Below, in pieces: positions 8,101 to 58,600 of a stretch of DNA of 64,000 nt; the stretch's first letter is position 1, and each line of letters begins with the position of its first letter. The DNA comes from Amoebophrya sp. A120. Lineage: Eukaryota > Protista > Dinoflagellata. The notes under the pieces were generated by a model, which saw nothing but the letters and a program-made list of their open reading frames with translations, ran no database searches and was not told the DNA's origin. Location: assembly GCA_905178155.1 (NCBI GenBank), contig CAJINV010000004.1, positions 8,392,882 through 8,456,881 on the forward strand, read 5' to 3'. The position numbers and the translations under genes were made by a program.

Positions 8101-11100
8101 GTTTTCACTCAGGGCGCGGGACCTGAGTGAAATTTTCATGCAGGTTCTCGGGTCTGGATGAAATCTTCACTCAGGATCTTGGTCCTGAATTTCAGAGCGC
8201 GAAAACGTGAAGACACCTTTTGCGTTTGTGGGGAGCAGCGGGCGCATCGGGATCCCGTAGAAGCTTCAGGCGTGCGCGGCGGTAGGGTTTGGATCACATG
8301 ACCAACAGCAACACTGTGTATCTAAATCTACCTATTATCTGCAATGGAAGAATATTAATATGACATTTTTCCAGTACAAGAAATAAGTCTGGCCTACACC
8401 TGCCTTTCTTTCTCCGTGGGATAGTATCGTCCTTGTACACGGCGATCCGCTTTCTATACTCCGTGGTTTGTGGACACCCGTCCAAACTCCGTGGCCGCGA
8501 TAGGTATGCATTGCAAATATGTTTCTTGGGTCTAGAAAGTTGTGATGCCAAAAGTGCTCGAATGATATGAAGCCTGTGCTAGAGGCGGGCCACGCATGAC
8601 AAATTTCTGTGCAGCTATGTCTAGCGTGAACTGCATGACAAGCGAGAAGCACTGTAGGAGCGCAACAAACAAGAAAGAAATGGATTGACATACCAGGGTC
8701 TCAGCGTTCTTGTCTCAACGTTCTTGAGGCCGACGGGAAATCGTCTCAACGATCGCCCGGCGACCTCAAACAACGGTCGTTGGCAGTGGCGGAGAGGTAA
8801 GCCCGCCACCATTGATGCAAGGCGAGGGCGGGCGGTGACACACAAGAGGCGCAAGAACGCGGTAACACACACACGCGCAGGGGCGCGGGCGCGAAAGAAC
8901 CCAACACAAGCAGAGGGAAGACTCGTCGGCCAGGGTCGTCGGCGGCCGGCCGGCGGCGGGTTCCCTGGCCGGCGAGCAGGACCACAAACCCCAAACCCTA
9001 GACCCTGAGCCCTAAAACTAAACGGTGCTGAAGTTGAGATGCCGCGGTCAACGTTAGAGCATTTTGTCTCATAGTTGAGACAAATGGGCGTAGTTGAGAT
9101 TCTGGTTTGTCAATGGGCGTAGTTGAATGTCTGTCTTGTCGGCCAACCAGGATAAACTTGCATTCTTCCACGACACCCAGAAATATTTGCAATGCATATT
9201 TCATCCAGGTGGCCCTGTGCCGATTTTACGCCGAGTGCCATGGCCGCGTTTGGTATCAAAGGCAAGCAGTTTCGCCTCACCAAAAATCCTGATAAGTGTA
9301 CGGCTTTACACAAATAAAAATGCATCGTCCTGCGAGTAGACGTAGACCACGAAAGAAAACATACAAATCCCCCTAGATCTTCTTCCAGTCGCTCCATAGG
9401 AGCGAAAACACACAAAAACAGAGGCTGCTGAGGTATTGGGCAACGCAATGTGATCATGACCAGCAGCCACAGCCTCGGCTTACAAAACACACAGCACGCA
9501 ACCTCTTGCGCTAACGATACTTTATGCAACATTTCAGACGAGACCGCATGTCGACGTGGACGTGGTCCACTCGTTTATTACATCTCTGGCTCGTCTCTCA
9601 CATAGGAATTTGCCATCATGGCGATTTCAAATTACAAAGGCAGCGAGCTTGTTCACTAAAACATAGTACATTGATGCTTTCTACTTCAAACAACTTCCAA
9701 CGCAAGACTGCTTCTCTACAGCGTGCGAAATCTACCTGCGTTTGATACTTCTGACAACCGCTGCAAAAAAGCCTAAAAAAAGCCGCAACAGAAAAAGCGG
9801 ACATAGGTGGGGCGCCGGGTGATTTTTTGGCACCCATCTGTCCCCGTTGCCGGCCGCAAACGCAACGGCCCGGGCTGCGATCGAAAAATCACAGGAGGTA
9901 GGCCTCTAGGGGGGCTCACTCAACGGGCGCGGCGCCTGGTGGATACTTATAGGGCGCCCGCCCGCGCGTCGGGCCGGCGGCCTTGTCCTCGGCCCCCAAA
10001 GCCGAGGCCAAGACGCGGAGCACGCAGGTGGGGCGCCGGCGGGTTTCTTGGCAACTTCGCGACTGGAGGACGGATGGTTGGATCGCAAAGGCATCGGCCA
10101 GGGCTGCGAAAGAATGAATCCCAAGAAAACTAACAAGCGGACTCGGGTGCGGCGCCGGGTGGTTTTGGGGCACCCACCTCCTACTTTCTTGCTAACGGTC
10201 CAAAACGCCACGCCCTGCGGTTCTGAAAAGCGCAAGCAGGCGGGCGGGCCACGATGCGGCGCCACCCCCCCACGCACAGAGGGCCTGCCGGGGGGCGAGG
10301 GGCTGGGAATAAGACGAAGAACAAGCAGAAGCAGGCTCCGTGGGTGGACATGGACGGGTCGGCTAGCTTGCTTGGGGGCGCGCAAAGGCCTGGGCGTCGG
10401 GGCATTATTTTCCCCAGAAGCACCACGAAACCCGCCCGCGCTGTGCCGGCGGGCCACACCCCCTGTGTGGCGCCAGATGGCCAAAGGCCTCCAAGCGGGC
10501 GCGCCATACCGTGCGCCCCAAGCGTGGGCGCATGCCCATGCGTGCGCAAAGTTCTCTCGGGCACCGCAGCGGCTGCCGAGACGCGGGCGCGGCAATGAAT
10601 CGGCGCAACCCGCTGGCGCCGAAGATAGGGACACAGAATAAACCACAAGGCAGGCCACGGCCCAACGCGGGCAAGGGCAGCGGGGGGGACTACCTTCTGC
10701 GCCTACCATAATGCTCTGCCTCACACGAGATTTGTCTGAACGCGGCCACACTTTGAAACACGCAGAAAAAAAAACGCGAATCTTGACGGTATGATCGATT
10801 TTTCTTTGGGGTCGGCAACGGCCGGGAAGATCACTCGTTTGCCCTCTATACTACAGCGTGCGAAATCTACCTGCGTTTGATACTTCTGACAACCGCTGTC
10901 ACCGTCTTCGCGGCAAGGTCGAGAACGGTGTGCGCCACCGACGCCAAATGGTCCGCCACCGACGCGGCTACAGCAGAGCCGGCAATTGCGTGGGAGCTAA
11001 AGGAAATGGCGGGCACAACAACTTTGGCGGCCGCCGCGTAACCAGCGACGACAGCAAAAGCCGGCACAACGGTGTTTCGCACGAAATCAAGGAACGGCTT

Positions 11101-14100
11101 CTCGTATGCAATGCATACATGTCTGAGTTTGGGAATATTAGCACAAACATGCCAAGAACTTGCGATGATGATGAAGATCCTATCATGCTTACTAAAAACT
11201 CGTCATCATAACAAAACTGTCATGCCAGAACAGATGAACAGGCGCTTCGGCATTACTAGTCCTGCACAGAGGCTGTATGTCAGTGTGGTCATGTGCTGCG
11301 CATGCAGAGGCGCCCACCAGTACTCTGCAAACGTCGACACCTGGATCATTTTTGCTCCACTGGACAACTGTTTCCCCATAGTGCTCTTCGAGACGCAGAC
11401 ACATTTGCGATCTGTAATTCAATAAAGCCCTTTTCCCGCTTCACAAGCGCAACGTCAACTTATGCCTTGCTCAGCTGCAACTGGAACAACTGCAGGAGGA
11501 ACAATGTACTATTACAGCTTTATGCCTGAACCCTCTTTCCCCGAACAGCATGACCACCCGCGACCCAAAATTGGTCTTCGACGCTTTTGTGTCGTGCTCT
11601 GTTTTCCTGCTCGAGGACGAATCTCATGCGCACGTAGAGAAAGGCGCAGCCCACGGAGGCTTTTCGAAGCTTCAGGGAAGCGGGGTGCGCGAGCCTGACC
11701 CCGCAGGCACATAGTGCGGCAAATTGCGAAGCGGGGCCCTACTTTGTAAAACATAACAGATGCAGCATGCTCGGGACGAATCTTGCGTAAAAATGATTTT
11801 GCAAAGCAAGGAGGCTAGGGGCTAGCCCTGCAAAGCTCGGCCGTGCTATGTCTCCCTCCGCTCATTGCAGGGGCTAAGAAGCAGCATGCGTTCGCCCGTT
11901 GGATGTTGATCTTTCTCACGCGTACAATGCTAGCGCAGACAGGGTAAAAGAGAGAACAAAGCATCCTACGGTGCCCAAGGCCGCGAAGTCTTAAACTTTC
12001 ATTTACATCGGGGGCGAAAATCCGCGAACGCGAAGCTTCAAGATTTATAACTTCATATTGGACAGGAAGGGAAGGGGGCAGGTTGGTGGGGCGACAAGCA
12101 ATCGTCTCAACGATCGCCCGGCGCGGCAACCGGGGCGAAGGTGCGCAACACAGCCAAAGGAGAGAATCGCCCGCCAGGGCGTCTGCCCTGGCCGACGACC
12201 AGAACAAACCCTAGATCCTAACCCCGAAATCTGAACGGTGCTGAAGTTGAGACGTCGGGGTCAACGTTGGGGCGTTTTGTCTAAACGTCGAGACAAATGG
12301 GCGTAGTTGAGATTGAGTCTGAGGGAGGAGTACATTACAAGCTTTGTGCCGTGGGTAATTATTTCGTGTTACTTTCGATATCTTGATAGCTTCGAATATT
12401 CTATGTGCTAAAAATCACGAACATGACTGCGCATTCAATGATGATGTTCATCGTTATTCGGCATTGTCACAGCCCATTGTTCCAACCAACATTGATGATG
12501 CTCCAGCTCCAGGGCGTGCCGTACAACTTTCAGTCCGTTTAAGGATCCCACGTCAAAGTACACGCCCTTGTTATGCAAAGAAAAAAGTGCAGCTACAGCA
12601 ACAGCTGCACGTTGTGTTGCAGACCAAGCAACAGTGGCAAGCTCTGATGTCATACACAAAATGCTTTCGAGGAGCCTCGTTTCATACGTGTTTTTCCTTC
12701 TGGTCTCTGTATTGCATTTGCAAGTTTTATTCTTTCTCGCCATGCAGAGAAAATTTGTCCTCGTGTATGCTGAATCGACAACAAATGTGTCACTGTAAGA
12801 CTTTTTTCGTGGAATACAACTCGTTCACGCACCTCCAGTCTGGCCTTCGTAATCGCGTTTCCGGCAGCGGCGTGATATGAATTGCAAAAATGTCTGGGTC
12901 TGGAAGGTGCTGACACTTGTCATGCACGTTTTGCATGAGCCATGACGTCTGTGATGCATACCCTAGCAACACAGATTTTTTGAGGGCTTCTTGATGCCTA
13001 TTCCGCATGACAAATGCCTTCTCAGCGAAGCAAAAATTGCATTCCCTTTGCTACTCATGCAATACAGATTTTTTTGGAATCCACATGCCGCATCACAAGT
13101 TGCCATCTTCCAGACCCAGACATTTTTACATTTGATACGTGATGGGCAGGCATGTCCAATCTGGGTCTTCGCTCTCGATCATACGGAAAACAGCCACCAG
13201 TCCAAGATGTTTTTCAGAATAATATAAAATGCATTTGATTTTCGACGAGGACACGAAAAATAAGGCGTTCTTGTTCTTCCATGATCTGGAACGACAAATA
13301 TAAAGTGATCCTCTTGCCAGTACGTAGTTGTAGAGGCAGCTGCAGTGCGACCTCCAACTTGGGAGGTCGGGGGGCAGCACAGAAAAAAAAAACCTCCGCG
13401 CCACTACTGATTTCTATGGAGCTTTCCTTCTGCATCTAGCTGTTGTTCCACCCTTTCTTTAACTTTATAAGCTCATTAATTTTGTGGGACGTTCATCACC
13501 TCGCTCGACGTTGACACTCTGGTGGGCTAGCAAGCTTCCGTGTGATAATATTGAGAGGAAAAATCCCCCCCCTCCCCATATTGAAAACGCATTCGCCCGA
13601 AAATTTGTGACGCAGATTTGAGGGCACAAATCCTGTCTGTATTGCAAGAAGGCAAAGCCAGAGAGTCCGCCGCATTATGCAGGCGGTTTGTGATGCTGTT
13701 GGGCTTACAGAGCCGACATCTGTCACGCTGGCCCCCTACGTCAAAACCTCTCGACCCAGGCTTGGCATATGCCTGCAGTCCTCTCCAGCAAGACAGACCT
13801 GATTTGTGTACGCAAATCCAGCATCAGAAACTTCGTTTCGATATGGGGAGGGGGGATTTTTCCCTTTGATAGATAATGAGGTCTTGGACAGCAGCAGCAC
13901 TTGTAGCTTCGTGTCCGACTGCCACCAAGGCACGAGAGTCCTGGTCCCCCTGCACGGTTTGGCGTGGAGTTCCTGGGAAAACTTTGTTCTTCACCCACGT
14001 GAAGAGACCACCGACTCCTGCGCCCTTAGCGCGATTCCATAATGATGGTTGGCGATGATCCTGCACAGCGGGCGGTGCGGAAACTGGGGCTTGTTGAGGG

Positions 14101-14850
14101 CTTTGGGGCCCACTGTATGGAAGCGAAAAGGATCGTAATCGACAGAGTTGAAATGCTTCGTAATGCTATAAAATGGATGTGGATGCCAGTTCTTGGAAGC
14201 TCACTGTCACTTTATATTAAGCGGCGCGTGACAATAAATTTCCCGGCCATCGGAATCCAATTTACGTTGCTGTCTGGGCAAAAAAGAAGTGGTCCCTTGC
14301 CGTGCTACTTTAGTAGCTCTGTCTGCAACCCCAAACTAACACGCCTACAGTCGCCCTTACTTGCCTGCCCTGCGATACAGATATTTTGGGGGTTCTTGTA
14401 TTTCATGCATGACAAACTAATTGTTCAACTTTGTGGATTTCGATCACTGGTGCAGAGCGTTAACGAGGGGTCCAACCGTCCGCCAGTTTCAGTTTCCGCT
14501 TTCCATCATCACACAGAAAAAAGCTGGCACACCATATTCATACCCATACCAAACAGAGGATGAAAACCAAGCACAGAGGGCAGTATCATAAGCGAATCTT
14601 GAGCATCTGACTCAGACCCCCACGCAGCCTAAATTTTCCTTTTCATCCCTTTCGCTTTGGGTCGTGCATTCATTTTTCATTTACGCCGCACAACATGGCA
14701 TGCTAGCTTTTTTGTTCTAGGATAGCGATTCCTTCCGAACGGCCTGGACTTGGAGGACCGAAAATTCTCCTCGTGACACGAGCCCGGGAGGAGTCACGTG
14801 TAGTAAAGTTGAAAAAATCTCCCCCACTGGCGCCCCTACGGGTTTACTAT
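5129..14850 (-). CDS. Hypothetical protein, paralog A (motifs DWTCLPI, YRKRIAVY, MSQGRIGFFIFG, IVDHMHVL, EIAATPSYILEGRT); both ends uncertain
   Basis: Exons align in order with paralog B (about 21000-24680) after removing 11 introners and a GT-AG intron at 6202-6530; region 13215-13500 not resolved. Confidence 0.65.
5763..6086. mobile_element. Degenerate introner family C
   Basis: Left end TTTCCTCGGTAAAAACG, right end ATTTTTAGTCAGGATA; interior resembles 57782-58098; removal restores EPDGA|APQV. Confidence 0.7.
7185..8423. mobile_element. Large introner (1239 bp) with internal repeats
   Basis: 25-bp TIR TATCCCA(A/C)(A/G)GA(A/G)AAAGA(C/A)AGGCAGG; flanks gtctc/gtatc; removal gives AVYKDD|TPVYVIEAD, matching paralog B. 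Confidence 0.85.
8505..9198. mobile_element. Introner (family-A type) with nested insert at about 8684-9114
   Basis: TATGCATTGCAAATAT at both ends; outer parts resemble 28572-28835 reversed; TSD decayed but frame restored. Confidence 0.75.
9254..10882. mobile_element. Large introner (1629 bp) containing a duplicated right end and a 1087-bp insert
   Basis: TIR TATCAAAGGCAAGCAGTTTCGC vs TATCAAACGCAGGTAGATTTCGC; removal gives AVVR|NAAMALGVK. Confidence 0.7.
11105..11416. mobile_element. Degenerate introner family A
   Basis: Left end TATGCAATGCATACATGTCTGAGTTTGGG; removal gives GFIE|KPFLDFVRNT vs paralog GIIERPLLEFIRNT. Confidence 0.75.
11461..12523. mobile_element. Large degenerate introner (1063 bp) with nested repeat
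   Basis: Perfect TSD caact; weak TIR; removal gives GLKV|DVALVKRE vs paralog KLTVDVVIAERD. Confidence 0.75.
12572..12816. mobile_element. Degenerate introner family D
   Basis: Interior similar to 53340-53549; TSD decayed, frame restored. Confidence 0.7.
12876..13137. mobile_element. Introner family A (262 bp)
   Basis: Perfect TSD cgtga; removal gives CLPIT|PLPETR. Confidence 0.9.
13549..13871. mobile_element. Introner family E' (323 bp)
   Basis: TIR containing AAAAATCCCCCC(C)TCCCCATAT; perfect TSD gataa; related to 56105-56427. Confidence 0.9.
14116..14444. mobile_element. Degenerate introner
   Basis: Left end TATGGAAGCGAAA; TSD cactg; frame restored; right TIR poor. Confidence 0.55.
14507..14724. 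mobile_element. Old introner shared with paralogous site 24329-24564
   Basis: CATCACACAGAAAAAAGC...GCTTTTTTGTTCTAGGATA; flanks tccat/gcgat. Confidence 0.6.
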
Positions 14851-15627
14851 TCTCAAAGCACAAACAAGAAATGCAAAAAATCTCCTTACTAGTAATACAG
14901 GAAATTATAGTACAGTTTCAGTTTGAAATGTAAATCAAACAACGGCCATGAATTAGTATGTTTATAGTACTGGGTTTTTGCGCCGTTTGTTTTCCGCTTT
15001 TGTTCGCGGTGTTCTATACAGCGGCCACGGAACTGCTGCTGATGCTCTTGATGCAAAACAATCGGATACCACGTAGCTGAAAGTTCTTCCCGGCCTCGAG
15101 AGGGAGAGACTTACTTTTCACCGAATAAGCCGTGCGCGACCAGGACCAACTTGAGCGCCTTGACGGCAAGCTTCATCCTGATTTTATAATTTCCGGCGAA
15201 ATTTTTTCTCCACCCGGTCGCGCGGGTTCTTCGACAGGTCCAGTGTGCGTCTTCGTCTCTGTAGTTCTTCTCCTTTCGCACGTCGGTTGTAAATGTTCAC
15301 TCTATCTTCCACCGGTGTGGCACCGGTCGGTCTGTTGCAGAGTAGTTCGATATATATGCTTTCTGAATGTTGGAAAGGTTATGTCTAGACATTGTTGACA
15401 GCGAAAGAAGAAAAACCTCTTTTTCTCTCGGAACAAGGCATTCGTTACGTTGCTTTTTACTCAGAAACATATACACTCTCAGTTGTGATATTGCATCGAA
15501 TGACGCAAAAGTTTATCCCTACTTCTCAATATACCTTTTCTACTTCGGCGTCCTCGCTGTCCCCCCCGGTTTGGTGGATGAAGTAGCGCAGCTTCTGCAA
15601 GATTTTTTGTCCTCCCGGTGTGGCCTC

Positions 15628-16007
15628 TATCAACCGCAAAGAACTACCTCCCGACCGCTCTGGGTCTGGAAAGGCAAAGGAGTTGAATAATGGCAGAAAG
15701 CTCCTGCTGCATGAATCATGCAGTAGGCACGAGTTTTTGCGCTTGTCGGCAATTGCGTAGGTAGGTGCTACTTCTATTGGAAAGTAAAATTCTAATCCCT
15801 ATCCCAAAGGGAAGGTTGAAGATCAGCGCTGTAAGTAGCAGAGCTACGTGAAAACAATAAAATCCTACGAAACACTTTCGTTCACACCGAACGTGGTAGA
15901 ATCATGCCTCAAAATTTCTTTTAGGCTCAGGCAAAGGAAATAAGAACGTTCCAACTTTAGCTTCCAGACACAGAGGTGGTCGCGATCGAATTTATTTTCA
16001 TATGATA
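15628..16007. mobile_element. Old introner shared with 27214-27498
   Basis: TATCAACCGCAAA...CTTCCAGACACAGA...CATATGATA at the same position in both paralogs. Confidence 0.6.
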
Positions 16008-16061
16008 GCAGGTTCGTATCGCGTGGACGTGCTTGAGAAGCTGTGCTAGAATCGCATGTGC

Positions 16062-16323
16062 TATCAAATGTAAAAGTTTCTGGGTCTGGAAGATTCTGAG
16101 ACTTGTCATGCACGGTTTGCATGAGCCATGATGTCTGTGATGCATGCCCTAGCATCACAGATTTTTTGAGAGCTTCTTGATGCCTATTCCGCATGACAAA
16201 TGCCCTCTCCGCGTAGCAAAAGTTGCATTCTCTTTGGTACTCATGCAATACAGATTTTTTTGGAATCCAAATGCAGCATCACAAGTTGCATTCTTCCAGA
16301 CCCAGACATTTTTACATTTGATA
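16062..16323. mobile_element. Introner family A (262 bp), no matching TSD
   Basis: Near-perfect TIRs; highly similar to 12876-13137. Confidence 0.85.
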
Positions 16324-16404
16324 GACGCCGACTTGATCTTTCTTCTCGTGCTGGTTCTCGGGGTGGCCGGTCGTCCTGGACGTCTTTGGTCTTTGTTCCT
16401 CGCT

Positions 16405-16656
16405 TATTAAATGTAAAAATGTCTGGGTCTGGAAGAATGCAGGTTTGTCATGCTTGTCTGGCATAACTCTGAAATCTGTCATGCACGTCACCCAAGAGCT
16501 CCGCTTTTCTGTGATGCAGAAGCGCAGTTTGTCATGCAGAATAGGCAACACCTAGAAGCCCAGAAACTTGTCATGCTGAGCCAGCATTTGTGGCCTCATC
16601 ATGAGACGCCACCCAGCATCACAAGTTTCCAGACCCAGACATTTTTACATTTGATA
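16405..16656. mobile_element. Introner family A2 (252 bp) between two copies of an ~80-bp unit
   Basis: Highly similar to 22902-23153. Confidence 0.85.
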
Positions 16657-19579
16657 GACGTCGACTTGATCTTTCTTCTCGTGCTGGTTCTCGGGGCTGC
16701 CGATCGTCCTGGACGTCTTTGCCTTTGCCTCTCGCTGTGTTCGGTCCTTGGACACTTCGTCGAGAGGGTAATTCTATTCCGCGACGTCGAACAGGAAAGT
16801 CGTGAGCAGGCCTTTATTTTGTAGTAAAGTGAAAGTACTATAGTGCAAGAGCGCTTTCAAAAATATTCTTGGTGATGGCGCCTGATCAACATTGTTAGAA
16901 GCGCATAAAGAACTTCTGCCCCGGCTAACTTTGCACACGAACAAGATTTAGCAGATACACAGCTAAAACGACGTCAAGGTAATTGATTCTAGGAGCGTCT
17001 GTAGCTTCATTTCCGGAGAAGAACGATGATTTACGCCGTACCTAAGTATCAAACAAAAAAGTAAAATTTTAGTTTTCTGTTTCAAAAAACTACTCTTACA
17101 CTTCCATACACACTAATGAAGAGAGAGAAGGGGATAAGACGTAATCAGTCCCTGGGAAAGGAATTTATTATGTGGTAGAACTACAAGTACAAGAGGACTT
17201 TATGTAGTTACTACCCTTCTTGCCCCTAGCAACCGAGAACGTCTACTTCGGTGCTACGCGAGTCTCTTTCACGACCAAGAGAAACTTCTAAGACCGACGA
17301 GGGAAAAATATTATACCAACATGTTCATCATGGCCGACCGACCGAAGCGCTTCTTTGTACACGGTACTTGTTCACGACAAAGTGGAGGTGGCAAGGGCGT
17401 AACGACACGACAATGTCATCGCACGTACCGACGCACAGCACGCTATGCTACTCTCGCACGAGGACACCGATCAATTTCAATCGCATTTTTCGCAACAACT
17501 AAAGTAAGTAGTATCCGAGGAAACATAGGTCGTGTATAAACATTGGGTGCGCTTGCACAAAAACGCCGTGAGCCCAAAAATGCCCAGGTGCAGGACACGT
17601 ACGACATAGAACCGAAGCGAAGAACTCAGTGGAGAAATATATCCAAACCGACTTTCAAGAAGTACGCGGCTGGAAATTATTTCTCAGAAAACCGATCATG
17701 CTGTAATTTGGGAAGAGATGAAGTTGGCCGACTGATAGAACAATCCTCTCGGGATTATTGATTCCAACGTAAAATAAGCTGCATAGGGAACTCAAGCCAA
17801 ATTCGCAGAGAATTATAGAAGTCCGTAGCTTCCTCACGCTTCTTTCGCGACACCGGAAGCAAAAGCGCCAAGAAAGACGCTGGCGCAGAAGTGGCGGACT
17901 TCATGAGAACCACGCGCGGACTTCACCGAGCTTTTTTCGCAGGACTGCTCAACGCAGTCAAGAGCTGGCACCCTATCTGCTGCGGGGCTCAATTGATTGC
18001 AAACCCCTTCGCGGGTCTCGTGAGTGGAAGCCTTTACCTCTAGCCACGCAGCATGACGGGTGTGTTCTTAGTCCAACACCAACCGACGGCCCACATCGAA
18101 TAAATATAAAAGCTCATGATTTATATTTTTCATTAGTTCCCGTAAAGACCTGAATGCAGCGTCAGGCCTGCCTTCCTGCGTCGAAACAAATTTGTAAGAA
18201 CGCATATCCGACAAAAACGAAATGATATAGTACTGCTATGTAAAAATATACGTAGACGCAACTTGAGTTTTACGCTCGGACATGTCGCGATTTTGTGCGT
18301 AGATCTGTGTCCTCGTTGTTCCTGCAGCCATTTTCAATCGTGACGTCAGGAGCCTTCTCCCCCCCGTGGTCCCCTTTTTGTTTTGGGGCCGCGCCGATGC
18401 ATTTCGTTGACAATTAGAATTACTAGTACACCGAGCAGGTGTTGTTAAACGTCGGGATAAAAAAAAACATAAATTCGTTGTGAAGTAGAAATAAAAAACT
18501 TGTACGAACTTGAACATGATATTGTTGTTGTATTTCACTTTCGCCAAGACCCACTCAAACCTCATATAAAACATTTTCATCAATTGCACTAGCAATGGTT
18601 GTATCGTGCGCCTGTCGGCAATTGAGAAATCCTTGAAAGACAAAGATATCGTACAGTGCGTGCTAGTAAACGAAATTCAAAAAGGAAAATACACTCATTA
18701 GCATCAAAAAGCACAAGCACAACGGCCACGACATCTTGGTGATGGAATAAAAACATGAAAAATAATCAAGTAAAATGTATTGTAGAAGATGCATTTTAGC
18801 ATTTTCATTTCATCAGATTGAAAGCAGCAAGAAATAAACTTGCACGAACACTACTTCGGCGGCCACAATCTCGTCCTCGTGCTCACCGCCGGCCCCTCTC
18901 GCGGCGTCCTACACCGGCTGATTCGCCCCGTCGGCGCGGTCTGCGAGTAAGTATGTATATGCGTTTTTTTTTTCGATCGTTTCTTCCTTGCATGCAAAAG
19001 AGCCCAAGTGGCGACACCACTAAGAAAAATAGATTTGCAATGGCTGGTGCTTAACGGGGGCAAGAGACAACCATTCTCATCGTAAGTTGTAATAAAGGGT
19101 GATAGCTGCAAAGCCAAAGGTAAAGGAAAAAGAGAAACAATAGCAAAGCATTGATAATTAATACCATCTCCCGCCGGCTTGTTTTCCTCGCCCGCCGGGT
19201 TGTTTTTTCCGTCCGGCTCCGGCGTGCGGCGCTGCAGAAAGCTTCGAGAATATCCTGTTGGAAAGCGCCCCTAGTACTACCACAGAACTACTTAGAAGGA
19301 GCAGTAGCAATTGCATTGCAAAGTGGCCTCATCTCGCTAATGGAGACATTCCTGATCTTGCACCTGCGTCTAAAACATTTTCTTGAGGCAGGCTAACGAA
19401 ATTCTGTGTTGCCAGCAACGCAGTGTGGTTCTGTATCAACAAGACTCATCGACGTGCTCTCCTGCATAGCTCTAAGAGTTTCGCTTTTCGAAACCTGAAA
19501 TGCACGACCAGAAACTATACGTAAGTGTATACATTTACATCCTGTAGTTCAGCATTACATGCGGGGGGACTTTTCAATT

Positions 19580-20410: not shown

Positions 20411-20999
20411 GGTCTCATGATCATGAAATCATCCCCGATGCCCTGTAACTGATCCACATACAGACAGAGGAGAAACTTCTACGCCCAACAGCTTGAGACG
20501 TTGAGGGTCGTCTCGAGTGCAGAAAGGCCTGCTGTGGCCACAGAGTTCTCCGCGCACTGGTACAGGTACAGCAAGTCGAAATATGATTTATACTTTTTTG
20601 AAAAACGACTTTGATTGCAGTCTTGCAACTTTTTTTTGGTTGCAGCTTTGCAAAACTACGTATCTCGAGTTTCACAAAATGGACTACTTGGAACCCGAAT
20701 CAAAAGACTAATATGCTTAGAAGGCATTTCGATTTTCGCTTATTTACCACTGAAGCTCATCAGGAACAGGGGCTACGGGACTAAATTTTCGCTGTGATAC
20801 GTCTATTACCTCCTCCGCCAGTTCGGTGAGTGCCTTTCCAGCAGCCGGGTCAACCGCTGTCAGTGTCAGTTGGAAATTTTCTCCCACCCCGCGGTGAAAA
20901 CTTTTGTTCCGGGTGCTTGTACTGTTTCATGCAGGGTCAGATGCAACTGCTTTTAATATATTCAACGAACTCAGAATCAATCACTACAGGAGCTGATAA

Positions 21000-23900
21000 A
21001 CATCACAGCAGCTCCTCCTGCGAGGACGTAGACAAGGGAAACCACTGTCGTCCTGCAAGCGCGTCGTTTGGCGCGCTGCAGCGTGTAGTGCGACCGAGCA
21101 CTCGATTGCACTTTTATGTTTATGTATGCCTATGCGCAGCAGTATAACCAATTACACAAGGAGCGATGCGGTGTGAGAAAAGGCTTTTCTTGATGATACA
21201 CACCGTGTCCCGTTTGGGGAGGCCCAAATCTGCTTCATCTTCCGGCCTACACGAGTGCGTGTATGGAAGTGGCTTCATTTTTGCCCAAACGCGTCGGAAA
21301 AAATTCACGATGCCCGCTTGCCCGGACTTCTTCTTTCGTGAATTCGTCTTGTCCCAGACGGTTACCAGATTGATTGCGGCCTTGGTATGTTCTTCCAGCG
21401 TGTTTTGCGGAAAATTTTTTATTTTTACAAGGAGACCTGGGACAGGTTCTTGGCCTTGTTTTGTTTCCGGCAGGGACTTTGCATCGGCGCCAGCTTTGTC
21501 ATCCGTCATGGGATATCAACTGTAAAAGTGTCTGGGTCTGGAAGAGTCATGCTGTTTCTGCATGACACAGAAGGTCTGGCATGGAAGCTCTAGCATCACA
21601 GGTCTCGAGAAGCTTTCGCAATGCCGAACCCGCATGACAAATCCCACATTTTGGTGACAGAAAGTGAGTAGCTTTTGCTACCTATGCATGAGAGATTTTC
21701 GCGTGTTCTGAAATGCGCATCACAGGTTACATCCTTCCAGACCCAGACATTTTTGCAGTTGATATGGGACCCACCTCCGGAAAGTCGCGGCCCTGAAAGA
21801 CTGCAACCACATTTGCCTCATCGCTCAGGATATCAAATGTAAAAATGTCTGGGTCTGGAAGATTCTGAGATTTGTCATGCATATTTCGGATCACGCAAGT
21901 GGCGTCTGATGCAGGCAAAAGCATCACAGGTTTTGAGCACGCCTCATGATGCCTGTCCCGCATGAGAAACTTCCTACTTGCGTGCCAAGAAATGGACAGC
22001 TTTTGGCGCTCATGCAGCACAAATTTTTGTGTGTTCCAAAGTTTGCATCACAAGTTCCAACCCTTCCAGACCCAGACATTTTTGCATTTGGTACAGGAGT
22101 TTTGTAAGACGTGTGCGTAGCCAGGAGGTTTGTCGCAACGTTCTCCTTGTTTCGTCTAGCACTTTTTGGGCTTGATCGTCCTCCGGCCCGTTGCTTGATA
22201 CAGGAACCACACCTGAGTCCTCGTCCGGTGATACGTAGCGAACGAGCGCTCCATTCGTCCTTCCTTCAAGAATGTAACTGGGTGTGGCTGCGATTTCCTT
22301 TACGATAAGTCGCTCGCTTTGAGGTTTCGGCGCGTTGATGATGTCAGCGATGTCAACTTCTTCGTCAGCACGTTCTTTTTCGGGTTCTTGCTTTTGCTCC
22401 TCTTCCCGCATCGTGATCTTGTACAGCGAATAGACTTCCAAGTTCGTGAACACCTCCTTCGTTGCATACCAGACGGGCAACATGACTGGCACCCCAGTAC
22501 AACCGCCGGCGCCTCGTGCTTTTTGGTATTTTAAGTTTTCCCCTTCGCAATGCGCCAAAACGTGCATGTGGTCAACCATACTGCCCTCCCATGCGGGCCG
22601 CGTAACTTGTTCGTCAGCATTGCCGAAAATGAAAAACCCGATCCGCCCCTGGCTCATTTTGCTGTTGTCCGCTTCAATCACGTGGACTGGGACACCGTCG
22701 TTGTAAACGGCGATCCGCTTTCTGTATGTCCCGCTTTCAGATCCCAGTGTTTTGTCCAGATTTTTCTGCCCGACTTTGACGGCGATCCTCGTTCCCGTGG
22801 TTTTGACCAGATTACGTAGCCCCGTGTTTGCCGCCGTCGTGGCAAGAGCGGCAAGAGGTGCGAAGGGAAACACGGCAGTGCCGATCAGGGCGCCAACGCT
22901 ATATCAAATGTAAAAATGTCTGGGTCTGGAAGAATTCACGTTTGTCATGCTTGTCTGGCATGACTCTTAAATCTGTCATGCAGGTTACCCAAGAGCTCCG
23001 TTTTTCTGTGATGCAGAAGCGCAGTTTGTCATGCAGAATAGGCAATACCTAGGAGCTCAGAAACTTGTCATGCTGGAGCAGCATTTGTAGCCTCATCATG
23101 AGACGCCACCCAGCATCACAAGTTTCCAGATCCAGACATTTTTACTTTTGATACGCTAATGGCGGGAACAACAACGTGGGCGGCCGACGCGATGCCAACG
23201 TTAACAGCAGCCGGCAGAGTATCAAAGAAAAAAAGTTCGTCACGATCACTCATGCGCATTCTTGCAATACAAAATTGTTTGTCATGCGTAAAAATGCATC
23301 ACAGCCAAACTTCGTTAGGGATTTCCCTAGTGTTTCTGCAATACAAGAAAAGTTTGTGATGCTGAGAAGATTTGTAATGCAAAACCTGCAAGTTAGTGAC
23401 TGTGACAAACTTTTTTCTCTCCATACAGAGCGGTGTTTCGTATGAACTCGAGCAACGGCCTTTCAATAATGCCCGTGTCCCGCTCTGCAATCACGACGTC
23501 AACTGTCAGCTTGTTCCTGGATCCCACTTTAAGGTAGTTGCCCTCGTTCACGCGCGTCCAGTCTTTCTTCCGCATTCTCGTTATGTATTGCAAAAATATC
23601 TGGGTCTGGAAAGCTGGAACTTGTGATGCTACTTTTGGACTCTACATAAAATCTGTATTGCATGAACAGCATAAGAGGCGCAATTTGTGCTACGCGGAGA
23701 GGGCATTTCTCATGCGGTATGAGCATCAGAAAGCCCTCGCAGAGTCTCTGATGCTAGGGCATGCATCACAGACCTCATGGGTCCTGGAAAATCTGCATGA
23801 CAAGCTTCTGCATTCTTCCAGACCCAGACATATTTGCATTTGATACTCGTCGAAGGAAGAGGCTCGATGGGGAGGCAGGTCCAATCTTCGTGTGTGCTGA

Positions 23901-24680
23901 GGTCGTCGACCACCGGCACTAAGGCACGAGAAGAAGTGGCGGTCGCCATTTCCTCCTTCTGGTGCGATACACTTCCACCACCTCCCCTCAAAAAATTCTG
24001 TGCCCGCGAGAGCAAACCGCCCACTGTGGCTTTAGCGCGACCAAAAATAGAGCCCTGGTCGGCCTTAGCGGCCGGTGCGGATGCGGTACTACCATCGGTT
24101 TTTTGACGGTTTTTGGGTTCGTCGCTCTTGTGGTCCGTGCCAGACGAAAACCATGACCGTCTTGTGGGCCACCATCCGCCACCTTCAGTTTCTGTGGCTT
24201 TAGCTGGTTCAGTGGCTGGTAGTTTGGATGCGGAATCTACGGGTTTTTTTTTGGAGGACTCCTTCTCACTGCTGCTGCCACGCGAAAACCACGAAAACCA
24301 TCCGCCAGTTTCAGTTTCTGTTTTCCATCATCGCACAGAAAAAAAGCAGCTGGCGCACCATAATATTTATGCCATAATCATAATGCCAAAGAGAATATGC
24401 TGGAAAGGACAGCGCTTTATGCGGGAGGACTGGGCATGTTGTTCATGCTGTGCAACCCTGATGTCATTTCCTTTTCCATCTTCCCTTTGAGTTACGCTTT
24501 TACTTTTTCATACATAATTTGCATCAAAAAACACTACAGCGTGCTAGCATCGTTTTCTGCGATATCGATTCCTTCTCCTGGACGGCCTCGACTTGGAGAA
24601 TGGAAAATCCGCGGTGTGATACGAGACCGGGAGCCACGTGAAGTGAGGTTGAAAATCTTCCCTGCTGCCACGAAGTTCTT
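21000..24680 (-). CDS. Hypothetical protein, paralog B; both ends uncertain
   Basis: Six introners removed in frame: KES|KTET, PST|RMRKK, NTAL|PAAV, AIS|VGAL, KLL|SDEA, VGP|MTDD. Confidence 0.75.
21514..21764. mobile_element. Introner family A (251 bp)
   Basis: TIR TATCAACTG(T/C)AAAA; perfect TSD tggga. Confidence 0.9.
21831..22093. mobile_element. Introner family A (263 bp)
   Basis: Perfect TSD cagga. Confidence 0.9.
22902..23153. mobile_element. Introner family A2 (252 bp)
   Basis: Perfect TSD cgcta. Confidence 0.9.
23220..23425. mobile_element. Introner (206 bp), distinct family
   Basis: TATCAAAGAAAAAAAGTTCGTCAC...GTGACAAACTTTTTTCTCTCCATA; perfect TSD cagag; empty site near 11063. Confidence 0.9.
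23582..23845. mobile_element. Introner family A (264 bp)
   Basis: Perfect TSD ctcgt. Confidence 0.9.
24329..24564. mobile_element. Old introner shared with 14507-14724
   Basis: Flanks tccat/tcgat; removal eliminates an in-frame TGA. Confidence 0.65.
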
Positions 24681-24960
24681 CTTTGAGATCTCAAGAATTT
24701 GAATTTGAAGAACGGCGGGCCACCACGCGAGCTCTGTATACAAACTTTTCGCGTCGTCCTTTCTGTTTATATATATTTCGAACTGGTGTTCTACAATACT
24801 TACTACTGGCCGCGGTCACATTCTTTTGATGAAAAATCCCGGACCCGCGTGGCTGAGTCTCATCTTAAGGCCTCGAGCGGGGAACATTTTCCGCTGAATA
24901 AAAGGTGCGCGACCAGGACCAACTTGAGCGTTTGTGTGAGCTTCATCCTGCTTTCTCTGG

Positions 24961-25281
24961 TATCAAAATGAAAAAAGCCCCCACCCCATATCAGAAGCGG
25001 AAGCTGCGCGAATTTGTGATGCTGTATTTGAGCACACAAATCGACTTGTATTGCTAGAAGGCCAAGAGACGAAGCTGCGGCCTAAATTGCAGGCAATCTG
25101 TCATGCTGTTCCCCACTTCGAGTTCCCTCCTGTCATCCTGGAGCTGCAAGGCTTTCCCACGCTAGGCAGCACTACAGTCCGCATCTTTTGCCTTCTAGCA
25201 TCACAAAGCTGATTTGTGACCACAAATCTGCATCACAGATTTTCGGTTTGATATGGGGAGGGGGCATTTTTCATTGTAATA
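24961..25281. mobile_element. Introner family E (321 bp), upstream of paralog B, apparently non-coding
   Basis: Perfect TSD tctgg; nearly identical to 55733-56053; empty site near 15192. Confidence 0.9.
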
Positions 25282-50705: not shown

Positions 50706-53700
50706 TTATTTCAACGCCATCAGCTTGGTGAAAAACAGCCCCACAGTGTTCGTCGCAATAAAGGTTTCGTCGATGATTCCCTTGACTGCCATGCCGTTCG
50801 CCTTTATGATCGTCACCTCTTCCTTGGATGCAAAAAAGTTCGCCACGTCCTCGTTTCCAATCGCATCCTGGTCGCCGGAAGTTGTACTAGATGGCAGAAG
50901 TTGCGTACTGTTCGTCGTCCCCACTCCTGCTGCAGCATCAGCCGGATTTTTCGCACGATTCACGCCTCGGTTGGCTATCACCGTGTTCAGCGTCTCCAGC
51001 AGGTGTGGGGGCAATTGCGGTGCAACGATCTTGTAGATCTCGTCTTCGTGCTGGTTGTCCTTCTGCTTGTTTTGCTGCTCGTAGTTCATCCTCGAGGAGG
51101 GCTGTTCAGGAGCCATCTGCTTCTGCTCCATGTAGCTGCTGTAGGTGGTGGGAACGGCGCCCCCTCCGGAAGAGGAAACGCGCCTGCGCTTGTTCTGGTG
51201 CTGCGCACCACTTCTTTCGAACCCGTCGTGGTCGTGGTGCCTTTCGTAATTTTTGTCACGCCCACCGCGCATCGTGGCGGCCGATGAGTTGTTATCTTGA
51301 ATTTGATCCGAAAGAACCTCGTCGGGCTCCGGGATAATGTCATTCCGGCGCTCCTCACGGTGCTGGCGGTACGAACCAGCACCTGGTTCGCGGCCTCCGC
51401 GCCGGCGGCTGCTCGTACCTCGTGGGCCCGAGGCGGCGGGTGGTTGGGTTTTAGTACTACGTGCATCTACGGCTCCTCGGAGGTTGTTGTTGGCGTTGTT
51501 ACCTGTTCTTCCCCGGCTGTGGTCTCTACTGGGATGTTGTTGCCCTCTTCCTCTCGAGTCGGTCATATTTCTACTATTCTGTGCGGTATTCATCTTGGTC
51601 GTGTGCCGGCGTTGTTCTCTAGAAGACGAGAAGTCCTTCTTTTTCTCGTTGTTTTGAACGATATCTCTATCCCGAGAAGAAGCTCTGGTATGATTATTTT
51701 TGTTCACAGCGTAGTTCTTATTGTAGTCTCTACTCTCCCTGTCCCTCCGCCGTCGTAGTTCCTCTTCTTCTTCGCGCTGTTTCTCCCTTGTTTCCGCCCG
51801 CTCGCGCTCCTCCCGCTCTCGTCGCACCCGCCGCTCCTCCCGCTCTACCCGCGCCTGCTCTTGCTCTGCCCACTCCTGCCGCGCGCGCTGCAGCTCCTCC
51901 GCCCGGTCCCGTTCTTCCTGCGCCCGCCGCATTCGCATTTGTTCCAACTCGCGCTCCACCCGTTCGCGCTCCACCCGTTCGCGCTCCGCCCGTTCGCGCT
52001 CCGCCCGCTCGCGCTCCGCCCGCTCGCGCTCCGCCCGCTCGCGCTCCTCCTTTTGCTCACGGACGCGCTGTGCCTCCCGTTCCCTCGCGGCCCGGTCCCG
52101 TTCTTGCTGGATCCGCAACTCCTCGCGCTGCCGAGCTTCCTGTTCTGCCTCACGCTGCGCTTTTTTCGCAAGTTCTTCTTGTTCCCGCAGCTTCTTCAGC
52201 CGCGCCTCCTGCTGCGCGGCCCACAGCGCGTTCTGCTCGTCGCGCTCCGCCTGCTCCTGCCGTTGTAGTCGTTCTTCCCGTTCTCGTCTCTGTTCCGCCT
52301 CCTGGTCGACGTGGCGGTTGCCCCGATAATTATTGTCTCGGCCGCGGCTGGTGTGGTTCTTTCGCGTAGTAGTGCCTTGGACGGATTGGGATTCGTGATC
52401 TCTAGTACTGCGGGCAGGGGCCGCACGGTGGCGGTCATAATTTTCCCGACGGTCAGCATGATCTCCGTGATGCGACTGTTGTTCCCGACGACCACCTCGT
52501 CCGCGGCTGCGACTGTTGTTCCTCGCCGCACGATAGTTGTTTGACGTAGTTTCTCGTGCGCTGCCACGGTCGTTGTGCTGTCTCCGGTCGTCCGTCCTGC
52601 TCCGGGGCGTCCTGCGGCGGTGGTGGTTTTCGTCTTGGTTTGGATGGTTAGTTTCCATTTGTTCGTCTCCTCGGGGCAGGTTCATAGAAACAGTACTGGG
52701 TATAGAAAAAGTACCAATACTTCCATCGGGGTTCATGATCAAAGCCTCGCCGGTGCGGACCGCGTATGTCGTCTGCACTTCTAAGGGTATGAGTTCTTCG
52801 GGGGGACAAGTGAACGTCTGCGACGCCGGGGGGAGATCCCGGGCAATGCGCTGGGCGGCGGGAGTTGTAGTTCTGTGCGTTGGCAAAAGTTCTTCCGCAG
52901 GTGGATTTTGTACAGCTTGATTTTGGTCCACCACGACGGGCGGCGGCGCGGCCGCTTTGATCGAGGATGCTTTCGCCGGTACAATCTCGCCCTTCGGAAC
53001 CCGCACGAGGCTTTCAGCATTGTCAGTCTGTTGCTGCTGTTCGCTGCCTTCCTTCGACCCCGGAACGCTTTTTGGCGGAGGCAACCGCCACCCGGTGCTT
53101 CGGCAATGTTGCGCGATCAGGGCCGCCAGCTTGGGGTTTTTCTGCACCTGCTGCTGCAATGCTGGGTTGTCCATCGGGTGAACAATCGCCGGCGGGGCTA
53201 CTTTGCTAACCGCGGGGGGTGCGGGGTTTGAGTGGTTAATATCTTCGTTCTGGTCAACTACACCTGGCGCTGCGCCTCCGCTGTTCTTCGGGGGCCGCAG
53301 ATCCTGGTCAACTACCCGTTTCGAGTTCGACAGGTCTGGCATCGCAGGAAAAAAGCGTTACAGTTACACACTGTGTTGCAGGCCAAGCAAGACAGACAAG
53401 CTCTGTCATGCCGGATATGCATAGGATCCTCGTTTCACAGGTGGTTTCCCGTAGGATTTCTCCATTACAAGTTTTCTCTCTCATGCAGAGAAATTTGTGT
53501 TGCTGAATTCACTACAAATGTGTAACTGTAACACTTTTTTCGTGGGATATCCGGGTACTGAAAAGCAGTAGAACCACGACCGCTATTTGCAGCGGGCGTT
53601 TGGTTCTGCTTTGGGTTTTTATCTTGCTGTTGTTCACGGTCTACTTGATCATGCTCGTCCCACCTCGGTCCTCTGATATTAGCCTCGGGCTCCTGGTGCA

Positions 53701-55653: not shown

Positions 55654-58600
55654 TTATGCAATAAAAACCGGTAGCTTCTGGTGAATTACGCGACGGCACA
55701 CGGGGCAGTGCTGCAGCTGCGTGGAGCATTCGTATCAAAGTGAAAAAAGCCCCCACTCCATATCGGAAACGGAGGATGCGCGAATTTGTGATGCTGTATT
55801 TGAGTACACAAATCGACTTGTATTGCTAGAAGGCCAAGAGACGAAGCTGCGGCCTAAATTGCAGGCAATCTGTCATGCTGTTTCCCACTTCCAGTTGCCT
55901 CCTGTCATCCTGGAGCTGCAAGGCTTTCCCACGCTAGACAGCACTACAGTCCGCATCTTTTGCCTTCTAGCATCACAAAGCTGATTTGTGACCACAAATC
56001 TGCATCACAGATTTCCGTTTTGATATGGGGAGGGGGCATTTTTCATTGTAATAGTTCGGGACAGCAAACCAGGTGGCAGCACGGGTAGAAGACGACCTGA
56101 CTGGTACCGTGAGGAAAGATCCCCCCTCCCCATATTGAAAACGTATGTTCCTAAAAATTTGTGATGCTGATTTGTGACCACAAATCCTGTCTCTCTTGCA
56201 AGAAGGCAAGTCCAAAGAATTCGCAGCCTTATTGAGGCGATTTGTATATGCTGTCTCACGTAGATGGCGGGCCTCTGTCATGCTAAGTGCCTACAACAAA
56301 ACACCCCTACGCAGGCTGAGGCTTTGCTTGTAGTGCCTCACTGCAAGACAGGGCTGATTTGTCTACACAAATCCAGCAACAGAAGTTTCCGTAACAATAT
56401 GGGGAAGGGGGATTTTTCACTTTGATAACTGGGCTTGTCCAGACACACACTGCACATCCGATCGGAGGAGAGAATTTCCTGAGAATTTGTCATGCTGAAA
56501 ATTTTTGCCTCCCAAACAAAACTTTATTTGGCACGCATGATAGAGCCGCTCGGAAACGGAATAAAGTAGACTCGAATAGCAGAGCATCAGAATCACCATG
56601 TGGTTATCATACATGATAATCGTACTCTGGTACAACATATTTGACACCTGCAGTTCCGATTTCTGCTGTTCGACCGCTTGGTTTTGCGCGAAAAGCTCCT
56701 CTTTGATCTTCTTCAGCGCCTCAATTTGCTGTTGGTATTCGTGCTGGTCCAGGGCCGACATTCGGCGAAACATGTGCTGCTGCCGCAACAGAATCTCGTC
56801 CGTGTTATGCTTTTTCCCCTCGAGCCAGTCATACCTGCGCTGCAACGCCGCGGCCCGGGCCTCGGAAATGGCACAGCGCTCCTTCCAGGATAAAGTGTCC
56901 AACTCCTCCTGTGATTATTTCGTTTCAAATTTATTGTATTTGGGCATGAAAACAAGTTCTCGGTTGTTACGTGCTGGGGACCATTGTCATCCTGTACGAA
57001 CAAAGCATAATGCACAGTAGGATTAAGATGTTCTTTACATCGGGCTGGGTCCATCTTCGCGTGGGCACGAAAGACAGCGATAATCATGTCGTAAAAACCT
57101 GACTTGGTTCCGGCCAGGGGGGCGGCGGCTCATCGGGGTCTACGAGTTCGGAGGACATGGCAGGAGCTTTGCTTCCAGCCATGAAACCACCTGCGTTCTT
57201 GCTGGAGGAAGATGATGAGCTGTACATCAAGTCCCGTCCTGTTGGCGCTGGACTCAAGACCGACTGCACAAACTGCGACACGTTCCTGGCCGCCTAGTCT
57301 ATGGAAGCGTCAGGATTGAAATCGTTAAAGCTGATATAGTACTATAGTTTGTGATGCATAAAATGCTAGTCGCAAAGTGCCTGTCTTGCAGACCAGGCAA
57401 CTGCGGCCGATTACAAGCCTCCTTGGGGTGTGAGATAGAGCTGCTAAAATAGCATGACAAAAGCAGTCATCTTCTCTGCTCAAACAGCATGACAAATTGG
57501 ATTTTCCATGCTGCCTTTTTTGTCATGCGCCACTTGCAAACTGGGCTCCAGCTGGTATCGCTTTTTTGCATTACAGATTATTGCAACTTTGATGATTTCG
57601 GTCCTGACACTCCCATATGGTCGAAAAGCTCCGTAAACGTGTTCGCGTTCGCGTTGTTCGCGTCGTCGGCGAATAACCTATTGGACGACCCGGTGGTGTT
57701 GCGTGGGTAGTCGTACTGAATTCTCGGTATCGCCGGGTCGAACGGGGGCCGGGCGGCACTGCTAGAGGAGGAAGAGGACGCTATCCTGAGTAAAAACGTA
57801 CCCACACCAGAGTCGGGATGGGGATTTTGCAACACAAACCTAGGAGTTTTGTGAGTCACGCATGACATAAACAGACTGTGCTACTGCGGTGAGTCACGCA
57901 TGACAAGTTTCAGTCCGTAAGGTAGTGCAAGTTAGCAAGGAAAGCCGCATCACGAATCGATCTGCTGATCCTGTTTACAGCATTACAAGTTCCCAAACAC
58001 GATTGAAAATGCCTGTCATGGGATTGCGCATCACAAATGTTCCTGTCATGGCAAATCTGCATGACAACTCTGGTGTGGGTACGTTTTTACTCAGGATAGA
58101 CGCACCAGCGGCAGCACCCGTAGTAGTTGTACTACCCGGCAGCAGCGAAAAGTATCCTGTGTAAAAACGTACCCACACGACCATAGTTGTCATGCTACTC
58201 TGCATGCTTAAAATGTTTCTCATGCGGAGCCCCATGAGAAGCATTTTCTAATGCGGTTTGGAAATCTGTAATGCGCCAATCAGCATGAGATACTAGATCT
58301 GTAATGCTGCTTAGCTAGCTCAAACAGCACTACACTACGCGTCCAAATTTGTCATGCGAAACAGCCACAGCTTATGGATTTGTCTAGCGGATTTCCTATC
58401 TTGACTCTGGTGTGGGGACATTTTTACTCAGGATAAAAAGGGCTGGATAATGGGATTCGGGCGTGGAAGATTTTGGTCCCGATGATCCCGTGGCGTCTCC
58501 GGCAAACTCCGCAGTCGCTGCCGGGCCACCGCATCGCGCTCCCGGACGATGGCCGCTGGGTCCGGTGGAATTTGCCGTGCCGAGTTGGTGTCCGATGTGG

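Follow-up and report, generated by a model that had tools for sequence, protein, structure and literature searches.

Genes in a 64,000-nucleotide stretch of the genome of Amoebophrya sp. A120 (contig CAJINV010000004.1; hereafter the window) are interrupted by transposon-like elements with inverted-repeat ends and a 5-bp target-site duplication (TSD), which raises the question of where within the duplicated bases the splice junction lies. About 65% of the introns in A120 are of non-canonical type, and the published account leaves their borders undefined; its available text describes the splice position as 'variable' and the border as 'unknown', gives no signature, and reports direct repeats of 3-5 nt (Farhat et al. 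2021, PMC7789003). In contrast, the analyses described here make it very likely that the register is fixed, in the form N|TA…ATA NNNN|, where a bar marks the cut. With k as the number of TSD nucleotides supplied by the upstream copy, this 4|1 register is k=4, and the intron consists of 1 nt, the element, and 4 nt. Literature searches found no publication fixing the register. While the A120 introner class itself is already known, the fixed register appears to be new and answers the published unknown.

In three protein searches, single exons of the window matched proteins labelled Amoebophrya sp. A120 at 99-100% identity. The window contains 45 elements with TAT…ATA-type inverted-repeat ends, and eight further decayed elements were detected via annotated proteins. 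The terminal inverted repeat (TIR) reads TAT, seven looser nucleotides, and at least three A (position counts over 54 element ends). The 5-bp direct repeat spans the exon/intron boundary with the junction inside it, and the elements form repeated families with non-GT-AG ends that are removed from RNA. They belong to the A120 introners described previously, with which they share TAT-then-AAA inverted repeats, 5-bp boundary repeats, and strain-wide families (Farhat et al. 2021, PMC7789003). Short size, TIRs, a TSD of fixed length, many copies, and both orientations (found in all seven families with at least five copies) are traits of TIR DNA transposons resembling miniature inverted-repeat transposable elements (MITEs). 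A cognate transposase has been reported absent from A120 (Farhat et al. 2021, PMC7789003), and the terminal pattern of the elements found no match in viral contigs. A scan of metagenome contigs yielded 172 loci (L001-L172) of assembly JACKZZ01 sharing the window families, with best copies 72-98% identical. The 288 JACKZZ01 elements were selected without reference to their flanks; the 5-bp TSD is perfect in 236 of them and other repeat lengths stay at a background identity of 0.24-0.30, so the duplication is not due to chance. Their strand was called by a codon model; at the threshold used, it was correct for 27 of 28 cases from the window, whose genes were part of its training set. In the window itself, the minus strand is the coding strand of every host gene examined.

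Transcript evidence for the register comes from contigs; the raw-read runs gave no reads (X9) or 22 reads without joints (X10). Contigs of runs X1 and X2 are taken to be complementary DNA (cDNA) because they skip GT-AG introns, too. Among 15 listed joints (of 22), 11 lie at elements, three at GT-AG introns, and one joins the halves of an element across a nested insertion, and all 11 element joints skip the element length plus 5 nt. At 38248-38427, all five TSD positions differ between the two copies, and contigs from both runs give k=4 uniquely and with zero ambiguity. Together with the joints at 57300 (k=4-5), 55733 (k=0-4), 53340 (k=3-5), 44412 (k=2-5), and 39141 (k=1-5), this makes six informative joints, which alone correspond to p = 0.013 if registers were independent and uniform. 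In a low-coverage stretch, the ends of four X1 contig pieces point to k=4-5 at 5763, k=3-5 at 7185, k=3-4 at 8505, and k=4 at 11105. These readings are weaker, as k is taken from the place where a contig stops, and the one at 11105 has a depth of 2 and three unplaced letters. The RNA status of X1 and X2 is presumptive, and the joined forms might be DNA without the element, either empty alleles or products of excision. This is very improbable, since GT-AG introns are missing from the same contigs as well (X1 record 5; at joints 56477 and 56907 the depths equal those of the element joints) and an X2 contig that lacks two elements runs into a third one. Furthermore, X5 contigs pass through the elements unchanged, with no skip of element length plus 5 nt among 15 listed joints (of 67), which connect repeat copies.

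A sequence-only reading had derived the 4|1 register from six elements with diverged TSD copies, all of which are present with these copies where it had placed them and with the minus strand as gene sense. At 57300-57617 it had assigned the fourth nucleotide to the upstream copy; the DNA indeed gives a TAG stop codon for k≤3 and the cDNA joint allows k=4-5. At 11105-11416 it had assigned the fifth nucleotide to the downstream copy, in agreement with a TAG at k=5, a protein junction at k=0-4, the weak X1 contig end at k=4, and an empty paralog site, TGAAA, that equals the 4|1 product. The cysteine expected from the downstream fifth nucleotide at 55733-56053 is encoded for k≤4 and replaced by arginine at k=5, and the cDNA allows k=0-4. 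For 27532-27741 it had matched the empty paralog site to the downstream fifth nucleotide; this site reads TCTCA, which bears the inference out, and the annotated protein gives k=0-4. Its choice of the upstream second nucleotide at 44412-44635 (valine versus alanine; cDNA k=2-5) and of the upstream first nucleotide at 39141-39303 (asparagine versus threonine; cDNA k=1-5) was borne out as well. The gene at 44412-44635 was confirmed as a kinase gene by its Pkinase domain; the ULK and RING labels of the same reading are presumptive and based on motifs. Thus, the 4|1 observation is confirmed, and the interpretation that one register serves all families is supported, as it holds across the sampled families and the decayed introns.

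Annotated proteins extend this evidence. Junction peptides of P0001-P0003 constrain 12 mismatched elements, e.g., to k=4-5 at 12572, k=3-4 at 8505 and 14507, and k=2-4 at 9254, and a wider search for cut pairs within 12 nt returned totals of 5 only. When RNA and protein are combined for 18 mismatched elements, k=0, 1, 2, 3, and 5 are excluded in 13, 12, 11, 5, and 10 cases, respectively, and k=4 in none, an outcome with a probability of 1.3e-6 under independent and uniform registers. P0004 adds a nineteenth element, 35040-35278 (k=2-5), which is compatible with k=4, so that all 19 informative elements permit an intron of 1 nt, element, and 4 nt. None of the proteins P0001-P0004 shows a Pfam family. 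Among 35 mismatched, frame-called JACKZZ01 elements, a stop-codon test produced a single stop (k=3, doubtful element), which is too little to bear on the register.

Several points weigh against a single register. A single k is fixed in few cases (two by RNA and two protein placements, one paralogous pair), the others being ranges; contigs lose rare variants, so that minor alternative junctions could remain; and gene models may depend on X1 and X2, while gene prediction would reject stop-producing registers anyway. A junction that varies within the TSD among families or molecules, in line with the Fig. 3 legend of Farhat et al. 2021 (PMC7789003), would make 4|1 the commonest choice only, and it could also accommodate the elements at 15628, 16062, and 16405, which show no junction in contigs or proteins and were left out of the counts. 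With 0 of 19 elements excluding k=4 and every other k excluded 5-13 times, such variation is nonetheless improbable. An apparent spread in read alignments is to be expected because identical repeats leave the placement ambiguous.

The next question is what the cut follows. Among 34 introns in P0001-P0004, two are GT-AG introns and all 32 others admit the donor N|TA. In young elements the repeat supplies this donor, so the real test lies in the decayed introns, whose TSDs are mostly lost. Five independent decayed introns, found via protein without a repeat search, have 1, 2, 2, 3, and 3 possible placements, and all admit N|TAT; the probability of TA in all five by chance is 3.4e-5. For the paralogs 5208-5454 and 20860-21199, only one placement is possible. 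At 12572-12816, three extra nucleotides adjoining the 5' repeat appear in the protein as a leucine that the paralog lacks. The decayed TSDs, this leucine, and the junction at 38248, where none of the five TSD positions match, show that the cut follows the element end and not the TSD. The earlier proposal of a ruler measured from the TIR stem therefore stands in part: 38248 and 12572 agree with it in that the element end sets the cut, but for cutting at the 5' side a stem seems not to be enough, U+2 being needed as a base (see below).

In the 4|1 register, the TAT of the repeat occupies intron positions +2 to +4 and its mirror positions -7 to -5. Position +1 is free (A 71, C 56, G 82, T 45; n=254), and only T+2 is fixed, so the GT or GC of U2-type introns at +1/+2 is missing. 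AG at -2/-1 is not favored either, and intron 38244-38428 ends in TC; altogether, +1 and -4 to -1 show no bias for GT or AG, and the TSD composition is not shifted toward either. All 45 window elements retain T+2, as do all 209 JACKZZ01 elements (of 288) with a called strand. An apparent exception with C+2, 35060-35255, was rejected as the product of wrong element bounds, the element being 35040-35278. In a hand tally of independent events, position -5, the partner of U+2, has changed 11 times and U+2 never (p about 0.001, partly circular because N|TA was the placement chosen in old introns with several options), and four of these 11 changes break the pairing. The pair +4/-7 has 7 and 2 changes, which differs from the 11:0 at -5/+2 (Fisher 0.0005), and the interiors of the elements are free of strand bias (A>G 145, T>C 141). 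U+2 is thus constant while its partner varies, which suggests that the donor is read by sequence and that a pure stem ruler fits less well. U and A are also the two bases that follow G in a spliceosomal donor. According to Table S4 of Farhat et al. 2021 (PMC7789003), the nine top A120 types are all NT-NN and the nine types of strain A25 are all TT-NN, and A25 repeats start with TTA; both strains would accordingly have U+2 and A+3.

Based on this register, a divergent U2-type spliceosome that reads U+2 and no longer requires G+1 or a 3' AG is considered the agent with somewhat better than even confidence, because of the asymmetry at U+2 and the occurrence of U+2 and A+3 in both strains. It is ranked over a structure-guided, non-spliceosomal endonuclease acting with an RNA ligase, which would produce the same 4|1 register by measuring 1 and 4 nt from the stem base and is a serious possibility of clearly lower probability. 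The latter is consistent with the missing G+1 and AG bias, with both orientations in all seven families, with the predicted pairing of the repeat positions (0.5-0.8 on average in 40 elements), and with the fact that most changes at -5 retain a wobble pair. It is also in line with the fixed stem registers of euglenids, with nuclease/ligase proposals for diplonemids, and with the report that U1 was not found in a search by Farhat et al. 2021 (PMC7789003). A nuclease of this kind should not keep U+2 constant while tolerating mismatches at its partner (four events) and at pairs 2 and 3. In addition, four of eight decayed introns have fewer than three predicted base pairs between their ends and still keep N|TAT. 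RNase III leaves a 2-nt overhang, from which the 3-nt stagger observed here differs.

The assignment to a spliceosome meets objections of its own. Of the 11 changes at -5, seven are A>G substitutions that retain a U.G pair, and a count restricted to young elements gives 0 versus 5 changes (p 0.043). A+3 is changed in two JACKZZ01 elements, A-7 has changed twice, and element 56105-56427 carries G instead of A-7 and is still spliced; position +5 is mostly C and not G. No lariat, branch point, or pairing with small nuclear RNAs (snRNAs) was seen, and a stem would hide the donor. As a branch point, the motif GCATNAC found no support: it occurs symmetrically, and its conservation does not increase toward the 3' end. 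Moreover, aligner preferences can shape Table S4, and the failure of Farhat et al. 2021 (PMC7789003) to find U1 counts here as well, whereas 83 of 89 spliceosomal proteins were present in the same study.

The preferred explanation, removal by a divergent U2-type spliceosome, would proceed as follows. Non-coding hairpin transposons with a 5-bp TSD are cut from transcripts one base before the leading TA and four bases after the closing ATA. The terminal repeats are predicted to pair in the pre-mRNA, drawing the two cut sites together; in folding predictions, the average pairing of repeat positions 1-12 exceeds 0.5 in 27 of 40 elements. The first T-A of the element would act as donor positions +2/+3, and the 3' site would be set by its distance from the mirrored repeat, with A at -7 as a candidate branch point. 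As 1 and 4 nt add up to the TSD length and the same signal is present at both ends, an element inserted into any sequence, whatever its orientation, would leave an exactly restored message, and this would account for how the elements have spread. Taken as a whole, this explanation of 4|1 removal is given only a shade more than an even chance.

Other non-canonical or transposon-derived introns resemble those of A120 in part. Non-conventional introns of euglenids, which belong to a different supergroup, also have non-GT-AG ends, an end-joining stem (predicted in A120), frequent direct repeats, and cut sites whose distance from conserved paired triplets is fixed (Milanowski et al. 2016, PMC4770533). 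Euglenids pair +4 to +6 with -8 to -6 (CAG/CTG), keep complementarity over sequence, and have a purine bias at +1 (PMC4770533). In A120, the CAG/CTG pairing and the purine at +1 are absent; TAT at +2 to +4 mirrors -7 to -5, U+2 is kept as a base, and +1 is free. Canonical introners of Micromonas, Aureococcus, Symbiodinium, and Florenciella share MITE-like TIRs and TSDs and leave the mRNA unchanged (Gozashti et al. 2022, PMC9860276; PMC11282704). They need particular target sites because GT/GC and AG are carried or co-opted from element or TSD, whereas A120 elements need neither. Within the accessible text of Gozashti 2022 and 2025 and a Mob DNA review (PMC9860276, PMC12130899, PMC11282704), splice sites are either canonical and carried or co-opted, or the Amoebophrya junction is left undefined. 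Introns of hemistasiid diplonemids and of Fritillaria are likewise genome-wide, transposon-like, and outside the GT-AG rule, and their mechanism is left undecided or assigned to an adapted spliceosome (PMC12621601; PMC11282704). Fritillaria keeps AG-AC/AT ends and diplonemid introns end in G/C-rich repeats, and the available portions of these sources describe no N|TA…+4 rule. Further related papers are PMC11453091, PMC12787238, and PMC11170887. Minor snRNAs have been reported absent (Farhat et al. 2021, PMC7789003). TATCCT starts occur in some A120 families only and +1 is free, which does not agree with U12-type introns. The U12-type donor consensus is RTATCCT.

The features of the window are listed in Table 1, and some of them deserve comment. 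The young element 13549-13871 sits within the first five bases of the older non-canonical intron 13173-13876 (-), and its 4|1 removal would rebuild the old donor T|TATC in a twintron-like manner; the annotated protein skips both. Element 39931-44195 (-) contains a nested 3985-bp insertion (about 40093-44077) with a 7-nt flanking repeat and several open reading frames. An X1 contig ends at 44196 and leaves 25 letters unplaced, as would be expected if the predicted 4.27-kb intron were spliced, and the 22 X10 reads have poly(A)-like loose ends near 42083-42138. In 9254-10882 (-), the 5' end and about 15 nt of the upstream exon are duplicated internally near 9747, giving two possible donors, of which the annotated protein uses the upstream one. 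Two elements in 16062-16656 (-) lie within a tandem repeat of exon-like sequence, and their mismatched flanks probably result from rearrangement. The GT-AG intron 56478-56646 (-) has a copy of the introner motif GCATGAC some 10 nt upstream of its AG and may be derived from an element. Unrelated families repeatedly contain GCATGAC, GCATCAC, GCATTAC, and the corresponding reverse complements, oriented inward at both ends; these motifs are possible transposase binding sites.

Elements 24961-25281 and 55733-56053 share 96% identity across a distance of 31 kb, which points to recent transposition, and 39931-40099 and 58267-58435 are 98% identical. The insertion phase is uneven in JACKZZ01, the TSD beginning at codon position 3 in 104 of 201 frame-called elements and at the other positions in 52 and 45. 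TSDs displaced by 3 nt were seen at 12572, 15628, and L047, in addition to two chance-like matches (weak evidence from eight elements with at least three mismatches). The regions 2400-17800 and 18400-27800 are tandem paralogous blocks containing the P0002 and P0003 genes (51% identity over the query exon); some elements are common to both and others differ, which is useful for dating insertions.

Table 1. Introns and elements of the window, with the evidence for each (window positions; k, TSD nucleotides supplied by the upstream copy)
Feature (strand)	Element(s)	Evidence
Intron 38244..38428 (-)	38248-38427, TSD GAAAC/CTTCT, ends CT…TC	Joint 38243>38429, X1 and X2
Intron 57296..57618 (-)	57300-57617, TSD GACCA/GACTA	Joint 57294>57618, 1 nt ambiguity, X2
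Intron 55729..56054 (-)	55733-56053, TSD CGAAC/CGAAT	Joint 55728>56055
Intron 56101..56428 (-)	56105-56427, perfect TSD, 3' end GTA	Joint skips 328 = 323+5
Intron 57778..58099 (-)	57782-58098, perfect TSD	Joint skips 322 = 317+5
Predicted introns 58149..58889 (-), same gene as 57782-58098	58153-58435 (perfect TSD), 58627-58888 (nt 5 mismatch)	Sequence
Intron 53336..53550 (-)	53340-53549, TSD CCGGA/CCAGA, 3' end ATG	Joint 53334>53550
Intron 44408..44636 (-), Pkinase gene	44412-44635, TSD GTTGG/GCTGG, 3' end ATG	Joint 44406>44636
Predicted 4.27-kb intron 39927..44196 (-), kinase gene	39931-44195, family of 58153-58435, perfect TSD	Sequence
Intron 39674..39887 (-)	39678-39886, perfect TSD	Joint skips 214 = 209+5
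Intron 39137..39304 (-)	39141-39303, TSD ATCCG/CTCCG	Joint 39135>39304
Two introns 38489..38964 (-)	38493-38647, 38700-38963, perfect TSDs	Joints skip 160 and 269 = length+5
Intron 35036..35279 (-)	35040-35278, TSD ATTGA/ACTGA	P0004 junction, k=2-5
Three P0001 introns 27210..28836 (-)	27214-27498, 27532-27741 (k=0-4), 28572-28835	Protein
Decayed intron 24638..24901 (-)	T|TATTC…ACT+4 nt, paralog of 14798-15128	P0003 junction, 2 placements
P0003 gene 19247..24565 (-), part 1	19251-19584 (k=0-4), 19645-19916, 21514-21764, 21831-22093	Protein
P0003 gene 19247..24565 (-), part 2	22902-23153, 23220-23425, 23582-23845, 24329-24564 (k=3-5)	Protein
Decayed intron 20860..21199 (-)	G|TATCA…ACA+4 nt, paralog of 5208-5454	Protein, single placement
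Decayed intron 20412..20800 (-)	G|TATCA…ATG+4 nt, paralog of 4754-5148	Protein
Rearranged paralogous stretch 15624..16657 (-)	15628-16007, 16062-16323, 16405-16656, strongly mismatched flanks	
Decayed intron 14798..15128 (-)	T|TATTC…ACT+4 nt, residual terminal repeat	P0002 junction, 2 placements
Introns 14112..14725 (-)	14507-14724 (k=3-4), 14116-14462 (starts TAA; k=0, 1, 3, 4)	Protein
Old intron 13173..13876 (-)	First five bases duplicated by younger element 13549-13871	Protein, sequence
Introns 12568..13138 (-)	12876-13137 (perfect TSD), 12572-12816 (k=4-5)	Protein
Intron 11457..12524 (-)	11461-12523, 1063 bp, starts TAC, perfect TSD	Protein
Intron 11101..11417 (-)	11105-11416, TSD TGAAT/CGAGA	Protein k=0-4; X1 contig end at 11100
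Three long introns 7181..10883 (-)	9254-10882 (k=2-4), 8505-9198 (k=3-4), 7185-8423 (k=3-5)	Protein; X1 ends at 8500 and 7181
Introns 5759..6573 (-)	5763-6086 (3' end AAA), decayed 6197-6573 (C|TATCA…AGA+4 nt)	5763-6086: k=4-5 by RNA; 6197-6573: protein
Decayed introns 4754..5454 (-)	5208-5454 (G|TATCA, single placement), 4754-5148	Protein
Introns 3510..4498 (-)	3514-3847 (k=0-4), 4231-4497	Protein
Predicted introns 376..1103 (-)	380-644 (nt 5 mismatch), 823-1102	Sequence

A fixed register reduces the chaotic-looking dinucleotides of these introns to one rule and allows the re-annotation of non-canonical introns in A120. It explains how elements without GT or AG fill genes harmlessly, names the exact bases to mutate, and indicates the sites at which a lariat or a circle should be sought. 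Tentatively, and at less than even confidence, a new spliceosome rule may apply to most A120 introns, in which U+2 comes from the transposon, the 3' site lies four bases past its mirrored end and seven from a candidate branch A, and neither G+1 nor AG is required. The splicing mechanism of A120 introners thereby becomes testable, and a direct test is at hand of whether U+2, as the sole fixed end base, suffices for a spliceosome.

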